Below, in pieces: positions 19,787 through 38,443 of a stretch of DNA of 64,000 bases (the stretch's first letter is position 1; each line of letters begins with the position of its first letter). The position numbers and the translations under genes are program-made. The DNA lies in the IMG/VR virus record IMGVR_UViG_3300021963_006848, positions 33,039 to 97,038 of that record; one strand, 5' to 3'. The notes under the pieces are model-generated. The model had not been told where the DNA came from. It made no database searches and was given only the letters and a program-made list of their open reading frames with translations. This stretch comes from a virus.

Positions 19787-19813
19787 GATGTTTATAACTT
19801 GTTTATTAAATTT

Positions 19814-19844
19814 AATATACGAACTATTACTTTAAAATCAAACT
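19814..19844 (-). promoter_or_regulatory. Bacteroidota-type promoter for groES-groEL
   Basis: AGTTTG...TTCGTATATT, same 31-nt span. Confidence 0.7.
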
Positions 19845-31500: not shown

Positions 31501-33176
31501 TTGTGTTTCATTTTAATAATGAGGTAGTTATCTATTACAAGAAAATCCATCTTACTATCTAAAAATCTCTCTACTGCTTGCTTTGGTGTTATAGTAATTG
31601 TCTGATCCTTAAAATTAAAAGATGTATTTAAACATATAGGATAACCTGATATACGTTTCAATGCTAAAAGCAATTGGTAATACCTTGGGTTTTGTTCTTT
31701 AGTAACTGTTTGAACTCTTGCTGTATTATCAATATGAGTAATAGAAGGTAGTCTGTGGTTCTTTTTAACTTCTACAACTTGATTCATATAAGGTACCGGT
31801 TCTTTTATATCGAAAAATATTTTAGCGTCTTCTTCTATACATGAAGGAGCGAAAGGTCTAAAGCTTTCTCTCTTTTTGATAACTTTGTTGATTTTATCTT
31901 TAATACCTGGATGAAGAGGTGAAGCAAGTATAGACCTATTACCTAGAGCTCTTGCTCCAAATTCCATATTACCTTGGAACCATCCTACTATATTCCCGCT
32001 ATGGATTATAGATGCTACCTTATTCAGAAGTCTCTCTTCTGTAGGGTATCTAAAGTAGTATATCTTGTTACCAAAGTACTCTAATTGAGTACGTATACTT
32101 ACTTCATTGAAAGAAGGACCTGTGTAAGGAACGCTATTATCCTTTCTAGGACCTTTATAAGATGCTAAGCATGCACCAATAGCAGAACCTGCATCTGAAG
32201 GTGCAAATGGTATGTGGATTGATGAATAATGTTTATATGCTTTTGTGTTAGCTAATCCATTATACGCACATCCGCCTCCTAAACAGAGATTATCAGAATT
32301 AACTAATTCTTTAGCTTTCTCTAGAATTCTATTAAACTGCTTTTCGTAAATAAACTGTACAGCTGCTGCTAGATCATAATCATCTTGTGTAATTTCATCT
32401 TCCGGAAGGCGAGGACCTCTACCTAATACATTACATAGGTCAGAAGTAAACATTATCTTATCTGAATACTCCCAAGTAAAGTATTCTGGGTAAAATGAAA
32501 AAATTGATTCTTTTTCGAATTTAAAAAGCTTATGAAGGAATGGAACATACTTACTAGCATCTCCATATCCAGCCATACCCATAACTTTGTACTCACCTTC
32601 GTTAGGTTTGAAGCCAAGAAATGCGGTAAAGGTAGAGTAGAATAATCCTAAAGATTCTGGGAAGTTAATAGCAAATACTTTTTCTATAGAACTATCTTTT
32701 GCTTTTGAAATTGTAACTGTTTCAAACTCTCCAACTCCGTCTATAGTTACAACTGCCGCTTCTTTGTAAGGGCTAGTAAAATAGGAAAATGCTGCGTGAG
32801 ATAAATGGTGTTCAACATACCTAACAGGGCCTTGGTATAGGAAATGTTTTGCTAATAAAAAGTTAGGATTGTGAAGTTCTTTTCTCTCTTTGAGAAATTT
32901 TAATCTTCTAAAGAATGTACGAAAAGGATATTTGTTAAAAGATTTGAGTACTCTTGCTCTCTTTAATTCTGGAATCTCATACCAGCAAACTTCGTCAATG
33001 TCGTTTATTGTAAGTTTACTTGCTCTTAAAACCCATTTGATCGCATCTACTGGAAAACTATCGTCATGTTTGATACCTGATAGCTTTTCTTGTTCAATGG
33101 CATAAAGAACCTTACCGTCTTTAACGATGCATGCTGCAGAGTCGTGGTAAAATGCTGAAATGCCTAGTTGTATCAT
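31497..33176 (-). CDS. O-carbamoyltransferase, NodU/CmcH family
   Basis: HDSAA, EHHLSHAA, DGVGE, YKVMGMAGYG, EFGARALGNRS, RESFRPFAP, LNTSFN. Confidence 0.95.
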   Translation of the reverse strand: MIQLGISAFYHDSAACIVKDGKVLYAIEQEKLSGIKHDDSFPVDAIKWVLRASKLTINDIDEVCWYEIPELKRARVLKSFNKYPFRTFFRRLKFLKERKELHNPNFLLAKHFLYQGPVRYVEHHLSHAAFSYFTSPYKEAAVVTIDGVGEFETVTISKAKDSSIEKVFAINFPESLGLFYSTFTAFLGFKPNEGEYKVMGMAGYGDASKYVPFLHKLFKFEKESIFSFYPEYFTWEYSDKIMFTSDLCNVLGRGPRLPEDEITQDDYDLAAAVQFIYEKQFNRILEKAKELVNSDNLCLGGGCAYNGLANTKAYKHYSSIHIPFAPSDAGSAIGACLASYKGPRKDNSVPYTGPSFNEVSIRTQLEYFGNKIYYFRYPTEERLLNKVASIIHSGNIVGWFQGNMEFGARALGNRSILASPLHPGIKDKINKVIKKRESFRPFAPSCIEEDAKIFFDIKEPVPYMNQVVEVKKNHRLPSITHIDNTARVQTVTKEQNPRYYQLLLALKRISGYPICLNTSFNFKDQTITITPKQAVERFLDSKMDFLVIDNYLIIKMKHK

Positions 33177-33214
33177 ACTCTTATAAATAGAACTTTATTA
33201 TTTTTTACTAGACG

Positions 33215-33288
33215 TGGACCAACCTGGGCTCGAACCAGGGACCTACTGATTATGAGTCAGTTGCTCTAACCAACTGAGCTATAAGTCC
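33215..33288 (-). tRNA. tRNA with CAT anticodon, probably Ile2 (lysidine type), otherwise elongator Met
   Basis: GGACTTATAGCTCAGTTGGTTAGAGCAACTGACT-CAT-AATCAGTAGGTCCCTGGTTCGAGCCCAGGTTGGTCCA. Confidence 0.9.
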
Positions 33289-33291
33289 AAG

Positions 33292-33388
33292 TACCTACCA
33301 GATGAATATTTTATCCCCATATGGGCCACGGCCATTAAGTGCGTTACTTTCATTCATCGGCCATCACACAGTTTCACTGCTTAAGGTA
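33292..33388 (-). ncRNA. small structured element between tRNA genes
   Basis: TACCT/AGGTA ends, GATGAAT/ATTCATC, ATGGCC/GGCCGT crossing pair, CCCATATGGG hairpin. Confidence 0.4.
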
Positions 33389-33392
33389 AGTG

Positions 33393-33561
33393 CTGTAGAG
33401 GAAGGAGTCGAACCTTCACGCGGCGATTCAATAAATGACATTCTTGCTAGCTAGCGTGTGGTCAACCCATTATCATTTATCTATCTCTTATCCGCACCCT
33501 CGAGACGGGAGGGCATGTCTGCCACGACCGGGGACACCCCAATCCATTCCACCACTCTACA
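33393..33561 (-). ncRNA. 169-nt tRNA-like RNA with D-loop hairpin insert and very long variable arm
   Basis: Acceptor TGTAGAG/CTCTACA, T arm GAAGG-TTCGACT-CCTTC, stem CCCTC/GAGGG with loop CCGTCTC. Confidence 0.75.
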
Positions 33562-33577
33562 ATAAAAAAAAGAAACG

Positions 33578-33663
33578 TACCTCGAGCCAGAGTCGAACTG
33601 GCACGGGCGTTTCTGCCCACAAGATTTTAAGTCTTGCATGTCTACCTATTTCATCATCGAGGC
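33578..33663 (-). tRNA. tRNA-Leu(TAA)
   Basis: Class II cloverleaf, CAAGA-CTTAAAA-TCTTG, variable arm GGGC/GCCC. Confidence 0.95.
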
Positions 33664-33680
33664 AGGTACGTTAATTTTAA

Positions 33681-34536
33681 GTAAGCCTGAGACTACAGCT
33701 CTAACGCTAGATCTTTTGAGGTATTATCTTAATTCCCCTCTTGTCCAGAGACTTTTGATCTCTATTCTAGCAATGCTGGTTATTTAGGTGAACCACTCCT
33801 TGAGCTACTTATTATTTGGACTACTCTCTCCCTACTCGTCTCTATTCAAATCTGCCGACCTGATTAACCCTTGCGAGGCTATAGAACTTTCTAGAGAATC
33901 ACTCTTGACTTGCGATCTTAAGTGGCACTGAACAGCTCAGTACTATGTAAGCATCTTTCGTCCGTAGCTGGCAAGCGCTTTTGCTTTTATGATTATGTAT
34001 TTTTGAAAATGCAATAATTCAAAAGTTAGCGACTTGTGGATTGTAAAGGTAGCGGCCTGCCCTAAGCTCTCTTAACTTTTGATCAAGAGAATACTTAACT
34101 ACCTTTTGAAGTGTCCCCACCTCCATACTTTAAGATATCTTCATAACTAACATCTTGGTAGATGCTTGCTAAGGTAGATAACAGCACCACCTGTACACCT
34201 ACTTGCCTTTCAGCTTTAAGATACCTCTTATATTGAGCAACGCAATAATATACTTGGATAAGTATACTTCTTGCAAATACCCTACAGGTTAATCTTATTA
34301 CTCTTCCGAGCTCAACTAAACGACCCACATCGCCTAGTCACTAAACCACTTTCCCTAAAGTGTTACCCTCAGTACTTAAGGTTTAATGATACCCTGCTTG
34401 CATACTTAAGCTCTTGCGAGCCGCAAACTACCTCAGTCAAAGCAGTTCACTTTACACCGGTTTCCCGGTTTATTTACCGACTATATGCCGCCGAATGTTA
34501 TTTATGATTTAGCCGAAGCTTCATCAATGGATAACA
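33681..34536 (-). ncRNA. large (~850 nt) structured non-coding RNA, GOLLD-like
   Basis: No credible ORF, many GNRA/UUCG-capped hairpins, own promoter and boxA, followed by tRNAs; ends approximate. Confidence 0.7.
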
Positions 34537-34538
34537 AT

Positions 34539-34551
34539 GTTTTCAAAGAAC
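34539..34551 (-). promoter_or_regulatory. boxA-like antitermination element
   Basis: GTTCTTTGAAAAC just downstream of the promoter at 34566-34596. Confidence 0.55.
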
Positions 34552-34565
34552 GTTTTATTTAATTT

Positions 34566-34596
34566 AAGATAAGAACTTTATTTCGTATCTCCAACT
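34566..34596 (-). promoter_or_regulatory. Bacteroidota-type promoter for the ncRNA/tRNA operon
   Basis: AGTTG-N16-TTCTTATCTT. Confidence 0.7.
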
Positions 34597-34599
34597 AAT

Positions 34600-34827
34600 T
34601 TAGTAAATTTTATTTTCCTGATTTCTTCTAGCTTCTTCTGCTTCTTTGTACATATTAATCCATGTCAAAGATACATCTACAGGAGCTAAAACCCAAGCCA
34701 TAACTAAAACCATAATTGAGTCTAGTTCTGGAGAATTACCCATACTATCTACACCAACTCTTTTATACTTTTTATGTAATTGTATAAAACAGTAAATGAT
34801 ACAAATGATATAGTAGGGGACAAACAT
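34600..34827 (-). CDS. small membrane protein
   Basis: Two hydrophobic segments; promoter at 34847-34877. Confidence 0.6.
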   Translation of the reverse strand: MFVPYYIICIIYCFIQLHKKYKRVGVDSMGNSPELDSIMVLVMAWVLAPVDVSLTWINMYKEAEEARRNQENKIY

Positions 34828-34846
34828 ATAACTTCTTATTTAATTT

Positions 34847-34877
34847 AATATACGAACGTTAGTTCTAAATTGCAACT
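34847..34877 (-). promoter_or_regulatory. Bacteroidota-type promoter
   Basis: AGTTG-N16-TTCGTATATT. Confidence 0.75.
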
Positions 34878-34885
34878 TTTTTTTA

Positions 34886-35092
34886 TTAAAATTTTCCCGG
34901 CCTGAAATAGGGTATATAAGCTTTTCCTCTAATAGCACGTTGCTGATTGAAAGGGTGTGTTCTGAAGTAATACCCTCTGATTTTGTTTCGATGGTTCCAT
35001 AGTCGCTTTTCATGAATCGACATTTTCATTGGCATCCATACACAGCTACTTAGTAGTAATATAACACTCATTAATAATAATAACTTTTTCAT
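34886..35092 (-). CDS. small basic putative lipoprotein
   Basis: MKK, hydrophobic stretch, LSSC lipobox. Confidence 0.6.
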   Translation of the reverse strand: MKKLLLLMSVILLLSSCVWMPMKMSIHEKRLWNHRNKIRGYYFRTHPFNQQRAIRGKAYIPYFRPGKF

Positions 35093-36108: not shown

Positions 36109-36115
36109 GGAATTG

Positions 36116-36498
36116 TGGAGATGGAGGGAGTCGAACCCTCGTCCAAATACGGATTTAATAAACCTCATTCACAAGCTTAGTTAATTTTTCTAAATTAACA
36201 AAATATAAAGTTTGATAAATGTGGGAACCAAACTTTCAAACAACCTGGTCTCGAAATTATTTAATAGAGCTCCGACCTGTTACTCCAACTCTCACTTCTT
36301 TTTAAATTCCCATGAGTGATACGGGAAAGATTAGGCAGCTACTGCGTAATCAGCACCTACGAAAGCCATAGCGTCTTCGAAAGTGAAAGAAGATAATTCT
36401 TCTGCGTTTATTGTTTGATAGGTGTTTAAGGATTTCCATCTAATCCTGCTTGCATCAATTGTACCAACTCATCGTACCTGTCAAAACCGGGCATCCCC
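36116..36498 (-). ncRNA. ssrA: tmRNA with tag AEELSSFTFEDAMAFVGADYAVAA*
   Basis: GGGGATG/CATCTCC acceptor with G3:U, TTTGAC, GGACGAGGGTTCGACTCCCTC T arm, ATAAAC-GCA resume site, tag ORF at 36331-36405. Confidence 0.93.
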
Positions 36499-36575: not shown

Positions 36576-36577
36576 AA

Positions 36578-36716
36578 TTTAGGAAAGGAGAAGATGGTTG
36601 CGTGGACATCTCCTTTTATGATTGGCATTACTTAGGTGTATTTTTCCCAACTCCGATGATACCCGCCAAAATACACTCTCGAGCCATTGATACCATCATT
36701 CCCCAATCAACCTAAA
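36578..36716 (-). ncRNA. ~139-nt structured RNA candidate upstream of tRNA-Thr
   Basis: TTTAGG/CCTAAA, TGATTGG/CCAATCA, GTGTATTTT/AAAATACAC, AAAGGAGA/TCTCCTTT stems. Confidence 0.55.
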
Positions 36717-36724
36717 AGGTTTTT

Positions 36725-36913
36725 TTACTTTACTTCAGTTTCAGCTTTTGGAGCTTCTTCAGCAGGAATTTCTGCTACTGTAGAATCTGTTGCTGTTACT
36801 GCAGCTGTATCTACTGCTACTGCTGTTGAGTCTGTTGCTACTGCTTCTGATTTACCGTTACCGCATGATGCTAATGTAACTACTAAAGCTGTTGCTAAGA
36901 TTACTTTTTTCAT
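36725..36913 (-). CDS. small Ala/Thr-rich lipoprotein
   Basis: LASC lipobox, DST/DTA motifs. Confidence 0.8.
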   Translation of the reverse strand: MKKVILATALVVTLASCGNGKSEAVATDSTAVAVDTAAVTATDSTVAEIPAEEAPKAETEVK

Positions 36914-38163: not shown

Positions 38164-38179
38164 AACTGATTACTTTTAT

Positions 38180-38443
38180 TTAATTAAAGATAAGAACTTT
38201 TAGCTCATTTTCCGACAATCCACCTACTTTTTTAGCAACAATTTTTCCCTCTTTAACAACAACTGTTGTCGGTAGGGACATAATCTTATATTCTGCAGCT
38301 TTTCCGGAAACATCCTTATCTACATCTACTTCTAGAAACTCTACTCCGGTTTCTACATTCTCTGTCACTACTTTGCTCCAGATAGGAGCGTATGCTCTAC
38401 ATGGACCACACCATGTTGCGTGGAATCTAATTACTTCTGTCAT
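38180..38443 (-). CDS. trxA: thioredoxin
   Basis: FHATWCGPC, VDVD, SLPT. Confidence 0.92.
   Translation of the reverse strand: MTEVIRFHATWCGPCRAYAPIWSKVVTENVETGVEFLEVDVDKDVSGKAAEYKIMSLPTTVVVKEGKIVAKKVGGLSENELKVLIFN

Follow-up and report, generated by a model that had tools for sequence, protein, structure and literature searches.

What RNA is made from an ornate interval of roughly 850 nt in a viral genome, and how would a phage make it? The interval (33681-34536) lies within a 64,000-nucleotide stretch of a 97-kb IMG/VR virus contig that is 54% complete by CheckV; this whole stretch is referred to here as the window, positions are counted along it, and every feature that we locate in it lies on its minus strand. 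A preliminary description had proposed a GOLLD-like RNA with its own promoter at the head of a tRNA operon. GOLLD is a very large RNA known from phages, copies of which assemble by themselves into a hollow cage (PMC12286853). Here, we describe a computational analysis of the locus, its relatives and its leader. The best explanation for the interval is a full-length GOLLD RNA of env-38 architecture, encoded by a large phage that is a relative of the 'immuto' myophages of Flavobacterium, a reading to which we assign a probability of about 85%.

The covariance model for GOLLD in Rfam (RF02032) matches positions 33684-34106 with a score of 271.5 bits (E 2.5e-76) against a gathering score of 150 bits, and the match spans the full model, positions 1-416. 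It was recovered as well when the whole source record was searched. This confirms the family that the preliminary description had assigned, with which the size of the RNA, its phage origin and its tRNA neighbourhood are all consistent, and the possibility that it had left for a new class of large RNA gives way to membership in GOLLD. The match covers only half of the interval because RF02032 models the 3' domain alone; GOLLD RNAs consist of a variable 5' domain (residues 1-420 of env-38) and a universally conserved 3' domain (421-833), with a disordered linker between the two (Kretsch et al. 2025, PMC12286853). By the published boundaries the RNA of the window is 811 nt long, or about 870 nt with its leader, and a stretch of 875 nt has a single-sequence fold of -254 kcal/mol (z = -5.6 relative to shuffles). 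A blastn search of GenBank phages with the 3' domain of the window gave no match, since the family is too divergent for a search by sequence only. An initial pattern search for GOLLD had returned 53 loci, about 12 of which contained GOLLD detectable by nhmmer, the remainder being likely chance matches.

The other half of the interval corresponds to a 5' domain of the env-38 type (34108-34494), which is detected by nhmmer at 341.6 bits and displays covariation. It aligns at 65-70% with the sequence that immediately precedes the GOLLD 3' domains of two huge phages, and an invariant block within it was found in at least 120 IMG/VR contigs. The relatives that we collected comprise 114 loci with contiguous 5' and 3' domains, 93 of them complete and 63 non-redundant (<92% identity). 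RNAalifold, applied to the 63 5' domains, predicts 100 base pairs, 84 of which show compensatory double changes. When a 118-pair structure was scored over the 63 copies, 95.6% of cells were paired, compared with 78% when shuffled and about 39% when slid; its covariation score was 0.57 versus 0.22 and about 0.09, respectively, and double changes were present in 90 of the 118 pairs. Neither the observed pairing nor the observed covariation was attained in any of 500 shuffles. The window copy itself forms 112 of the 118 consensus pairs. Six capped hairpins that the preliminary description had listed are all present on the minus strand. Five are covarying or model-supported helices: CCGG-GAAA-CCGG (34468-34457), GCUC-GCAA-GAGC (34421-34410), CUC-GGAA-GAG (34310-34301), GCU-GAAA-GGC (34214-34205) and, in the 3' half, CCUC-GCAA-GGG (33878-33868). 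The remaining one, AGC-UUCG-GCU (34520-34511), is a variable hairpin of the leader.

The env-38 RNA, a GOLLD from a marine metagenome, forms a D7 14-mer nanocage (PDB 9MEE; Kretsch et al. 2025, PMC12286853). Its printed sequence carries the same 5'-domain blocks as the RNA of the window, which for this reason falls into the structural class solved as that cage; the comparison holds at the level of blocks only, as residue numbers in the supplementary sequence drift by 2-4. The two RNAs have in common the two-domain plan, the GGCnGC start of the core, a GAAA-capped hairpin, a GAGGGUAAC loop that is invariant across copies (34370-34362 in the 5' domain of the window) and a GGUGGUG block, as well as the 3'-domain helices, the pseudoknots, the palindromic L21a and L21b loops, the AU-rich internal linker and a neighbouring tRNA. 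They differ in the side on which the tRNA is found, the GOLLD of the window being upstream of tRNA-Leu whereas env-38 is downstream of tRNA-Met, and 9 nt are inserted in a long-range helix of the window copy, near 33817-33809. Even the closest relative among the loci collected is only about 75% identical to the window copy overall. We conclude that the locus almost certainly encodes a full-length GOLLD of the env-38 class. By analogy with env-38, its RNA would in all likelihood form a closed multimeric cage; that this cage is specifically a 14-mer is an extrapolation from env-38 in which we have somewhat more belief than doubt.

Other large RNAs set the limits of this class. GOLLD RNAs of the Streptococcus type are shorter, lack P9, P11a-c and P21b, and assemble as a 12-mer (2026 review, PMC12990946). 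The GOLLD of Streptococcus agalactiae and Lactobacillales (~700 nt) shares with the RNA of the window the Rfam family, the 3' domain and a prophage and tRNA context, but its 5' domain is shorter; the RNA of the window is of the long form and has both P21 hairpins. ROOL is likewise a large, ornate phage RNA that is found near tRNAs and forms an RNA-only cage, but it is unrelated in sequence and fold. As far as the citing text in PMC7567579 goes, the GOLLD of an L. brevis prophage rises during lysis and is dispensable for phage production, the latter being the only genetic test given for the literature.

Upstream of the 5' domain lies a leader. A hairpin with a UUCG loop (34496-34536, from a single-sequence fold) is outside the published GOLLD boundary, and relatives possess one or two hairpins of differing sequence at the equivalent place. 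It is preceded by the element GUUCUUUGA (34543-34551), which sits ahead of the published GOLLD start (env-38 construct) by about 50 nt and was recognized by its conservation upstream of the 5' domain and its fit to the boxA consensus. At 57 of the 63 loci this 9-mer or its TTTAA form occurs in the 130 nt that precede the 5' domain, and at 60 of the 63 if one variant base is allowed; the exact form GTTCTTTAA is found in 14 of the 63 relatives. Because this conserved element is located at 34551-34543, the 5' boundary of the RNA probably lies upstream of 34536, by 15-25 nt.

We read the element as a host-type boxA on the basis of its consensus fit, its protein-contact bases and its position in the rRNA spacers of Bacteroidota. 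The sequence nGUUCUUUGA at 34552-34543 fits the boxA consensus GYTCTTTAANA (PMC5725501). It contains G2, C5, U6 and U8, the boxA bases that contact NusB-NusE, and the G at the next position (consensus position 8) is also present in the rrn BoxA of Aquifex (PMC3177189). An extended 17-mer, found before phage tRNAs, is shared by at least 120 contigs of bacteria, nearly all of them Bacteroidota, and is identical to the motif of their 16S-23S spacers: 57 of its 81 occurrences follow 16S, tRNA-Ile and tRNA-Ala and precede a 23S landmark by 67-240 nt. The order SSU, tRNA, tRNA, motif, LSU, 5S was confirmed with Rfam on two loci, and the 16S-23S spacer is the classical position of the spacer boxA (PMC10250234). 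In 9 of 30 cases the core of the motif also precedes 16S, at a distance of no more than 450 nt. Of 60 phage loci, 41 possess a -7-like box further upstream than the element, and a covarying hairpin often comes after this box; the resulting order of -7 box, covarying hairpin and boxA in many relatives resembles the boxB-boxA layout of rrn operons (PMC10250234). With the boxA of rrn operons and of lambda nut sites the element of the window shares the 9-nt consensus core and a position before a long untranslated RNA; rrn boxA precedes rRNA, whereas the window element is in a phage, before GOLLD and tRNAs, and its antitermination activity is putative.

The motif is not confined to GOLLD leaders. 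Numerous tRNA and tmRNA genes of the phage loci have it 10-25 nt ahead of them as well, often directly after terminators, and it occurs 52 times on the GOLLD strand and 14 times on the opposite strand, where shuffled words average 22 over both strands. This distribution suggests that antitermination of the Nus type is used throughout phage tRNA arrays. In such arrays the motif, often in its 17-nt form, precedes single tRNAs, frequently after a hairpin and T-run terminator (L004, L005, L015, L021, L056, L060, L074, L102, L164, L173 and other loci). The phage record that contains the window shows no overall excess of the boxA-like core, whose counts are 4 for the coding strand, 2 for the opposite one and 2 for the control, and the tRNA/tmRNA cluster upstream in the window has no boxA-like element. 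In the GOLLD of Caulobacter phage phiCbK an upstream boxA-like element was not found beyond chance, and the link to boxA is therefore established only for the clade of Bacteroidota phages. A literature search did not find GOLLD together with boxA; the papers that name both GOLLD and antitermination do not connect them.

The element could instead act in the DNA, with GTTCTTTGA serving as a promoter element, either a variant of the -7 box TAnnTTTG or one specific to phages, rather than as a boxA in the RNA. Such a promoter would fire just upstream of stable-RNA genes, in keeping with the short distance to phage tRNA genes and the terminators directly before it, and the element ends in TTTG as the -7 box does; moreover, six GOLLD relatives have it 20-21 nt before the core, which would put the start site at the published 5' boundary. 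In the bacterial contigs, however, the 17-mer is inside the rRNA operon, between tRNA-Ala and 23S, which is not the position of a promoter, and the fit to the boxA consensus extends to 8-9 of 9 positions and includes the bases contacted by protein (PMC5725501, PMC3177189). Furthermore, the box upstream of the element at the 41 loci is a better match to TAnnTTTG, and this box and the covarying hairpin that often follows it imply that the element is transcribed. We thus regard a promoter function for the element as unlikely and favour its reading as boxA, which suggests that the GOLLD RNA and the phage tRNAs undergo Rho-resistant transcription with Nus factors.

A separate candidate for the promoter is a motif of 22 nt (34555-34576), GTTCnTATnTTwAATTwAATAA, that lies 4 nt before the boxA of GOLLD. 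The 97-kb record contains four exact copies, each of them on the coding strand (19803-19824, 34555-34576, 34836-34857 and 38176-38197); chance alone would give about 0.6 loose matches. The other three copies are each 8-16 nt before small ORFs. Inside the motif, TATCTTAA (34571-34564) resembles the -7 box of Bacteroidota, and relatives have clearer TAnnTTTG boxes at the equivalent place. The motif probably marks phage promoters of one class, in which the leader is very short. The claim of the preliminary description that the RNA has its own promoter is thus plausible, and transcription from this promoter with boxA included in the RNA is the outcome that we would favour, by a modest degree.

The genes in the window are all on one strand. 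Downstream of GOLLD, tRNA-Leu(UAA) (33577-33663; ARAGORN and Rfam) starts 19 nt past the 3' end of the RNA, and tRNA-Met(CAU) (33214-33288; ARAGORN and Rfam, 69 bits) closes the downstream group of RNA genes. The tRNAs said to lie directly downstream are therefore there, and with a tRNA-like element between them they bear out the gene order implied by the phrase 'heading a tRNA operon', but co-transcription of the group is something that we infer. A tRNA is found 5-19 nt downstream of GOLLD in 15 of the 63 relatives and within 300 nt in 7 more, and some relatives lie inside arrays of at least 20 tRNAs. Co-transcription of GOLLD with tRNAs has already been suggested by Weinberg et al. 2017 (PMC5737381). 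At this locus, GOLLD would rather probably be transcribed together with tRNA-Leu and released by RNase P. The gene for tRNA-Leu does not encode CCA and is followed by a T-run (33560-33576), which could be the terminator of the GOLLD and tRNA-Leu transcript. The tRNA-like element (33393-33561, 169 nt) has a perfect 7-bp acceptor stem and the T arm GAAGG-UUCGACU-CCUUC, which a large insertion separates, and was called by neither ARAGORN nor Rfam.

On the upstream side of GOLLD are two small ORFs and an epimerase-like gene, together with a cluster that comprises tRNA-Thr, tmRNA, tRNA-Glu and tRNA-Met. The phage-encoded tmRNA (36115-36498; Rfam, 116.6 bits), flanked by these tRNAs, specifies a long tag of 24 residues that ends in YAVAA. 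A non-coding segment of about 145 nt that leads up to tRNA-Thr (36576-36725) contains a strong hairpin, AGGAGAUG ... CAUCUUCUCCU, and no boxA. The relationship of the phage to the immuto group is indicated by its PolA, which is 74% identical to that of the Flavobacterium myophage immuto. No GOLLD match was found in the cultured phage immuto 2-6A, a result that falls short of proof of absence, and the gene thus appears not to be universal in this phage group. In phiCbK (L306, 103600-106200), the GOLLD 3' domain scores 165 bits and has a tRNA-Gly inside its linker, and some 500 nt upstream of GOLLD the other strand carries a permuted tmRNA.

Could the locus be a relic? The 3' domain (33684-34106) extends from P13/P14 to P27. 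When the full-length alignment of 63 copies was scanned blindly for covariation, all positions against all, 34 stacks emerged, and all covarying pairs are formed in the window copy, except for one at an alignment gap. Two pseudoknots covary and are intact, one between 34061-34056 and 33975-33970, equivalent to 467-471:555-559 of env-38, and one between 33954-33950 and 33777-33773, equivalent to 576-580:743-747; both are non-nested in the published covariation table (PMC12286853). The equivalent of the env-38 helix 562-569:709-716 was recovered by the blind scan as well and is fully paired in the window. The L21a and L21b hairpins (33847-33880) carry self-complementary GC loops and correspond to the kissing-loop bridges B8 and B9 of env-38. 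The L21a loop of the window is C-GC-AA, and in the clade GC is present in about 45 of 63 copies and CG in about 14 of 63, a palindrome swap that constitutes published evidence for an intermolecular kissing loop (PMC12286853); L21b, with the loop CGGCAG in the window, retains the central GC. A decayed or non-functional GOLLD, or a 5' half that is an unrelated spacer of structured appearance, might be suspected since the closest cultured relative, immuto, gave no GOLLD match. Against this stand the covarying pairs formed here, the 5'-domain pairs described above, a score far over the Rfam cut-off across the full model and the intact kissing-loop palindromes, and we consider such decay very improbable. 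That the interval holds a different large RNA (ROOL, a group I or II intron or a new class) or encodes a small protein is refuted as far as sequence analysis reaches and has a negligible probability, for although two ORFs of 77 and 78 aa overlap it, these are the longest, start with GTG or TTG and have no Pfam match, as befits the earlier finding of no credible ORF, while a scan of 33100-34900 gave no match to ROOL or other Rfam families at E <= 1 and the substitutions follow the covariation of RNA helices.

We also considered pairing between the leader element and the conserved single-stranded sequence UCAAGGAGU of the 3' domain (33805-33797). The two are complementary in most copies, with 9 of 9 pairs in 31 of 59. 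At the sole variable position, a leader A is opposite U in 7 copies and C in 7, a leader G is opposite C in 20 and U in 20, and 3 leader variants are uncompensated in UCAAGGAGU. This pairing was rejected, as it shows no covariation. In the same region of the 3' domain, the conserved single-stranded sequence AAGGAGUGG (33795-33803) resembles a Shine-Dalgarno sequence; a ribosome pull-down of GOLLD is mentioned by Kretsch et al. (PMC12286853).

The linker J13/15 (33988-34044), defined from the alignment of 63 copies, is AU-rich and variable; it is 57 nt long in the window and 39-66 nt across the copies, with a GC content of about 25%. Its counterpart in env-38 is disordered and located inside the cage (PMC12286853). 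None of the 63 full-length copies of the clade has a tRNA inside the linker. Many copies can form a small linker stem at a similar place, but its energies do not stand out, with a median z of -0.76 and 13 of 63 copies below -2. Blind covariation scans revealed a contact between CCAC at the 5' end of the linker (34039-34036, its first ordered bases) and the loop GUGG of a 5'-domain hairpin (34325-34328). A standard pair is formed in 63 of 63 copies at each of the positions 34328:34036, 34327:34037 and 34326:34038, with 5, 9 and 22 double changes, respectively. The published covariation table spans only residues 422-832 of env-38 and therefore could not have included this contact; the published interaction tables present motifs and intermolecular bridges without plain intramolecular helices (PMC12286853). 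The contact, which is absent from the published covariation table and is a new point of this analysis, may well be visible in the deposited env-38 structure. It could form within a chain or between chains, as the covariation is compatible with either.

These observations can be combined in a model for the synthesis of the RNA. Transcription would start near 34558, at the phage promoter-like motif, and the nascent boxA (34551-34543) would recruit host NusB-NusE(S10) together with other Nus factors. RNA polymerase would thereby turn processive and resistant to Rho, as on rRNA operons, across the RNA of about 870 nt and the tRNA or tRNAs behind it. Cleavage by RNase P at the 5' end of tRNA-Leu would then release the 3' end of GOLLD, and the RNA would assemble as env-38 does, into a 14-mer cage that is free of protein and encloses the AU-rich linker. 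The central step, recruitment of Nus factors by boxA followed by Rho-resistant synthesis, is one for which we judge the chances to be even.

Because this copy is a clear member of the GOLLD family and of the env-38 class, it adds little on its own; the analysis contributes the leader with its boxA, the contact of the linker with a 5'-domain loop and the promoter-like motif of the phage. GOLLD is among the largest and most intricate RNAs of bacteria and phages, and what is gained concerns how it is made. A host-type boxA precedes GOLLD in about 90% of the 63 loci, and precedes many phage tRNA genes there. We propose, as a view that may equally prove right or wrong, that Bacteroidota phages make GOLLD and tRNAs as 'honorary rRNA': the boxA of the leader would load the Nus antitermination complex, which would shield the transcript from Rho and might also chaperone the co-transcriptional folding of the cage subunits. 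That abundant GOLLD leaders bearing boxA also titrate NusB-S10 off host rRNA operons is much less likely. Given the island of tRNA and tmRNA genes, the role of the cage may be tied to phage takeover of translation, a view that we hold only weakly. The reading as boxA provides a testable model of how a phage would guard a long untranslated RNA from Rho, and it would tie GOLLD to the expression programme of stable RNAs, rRNA and tRNA.
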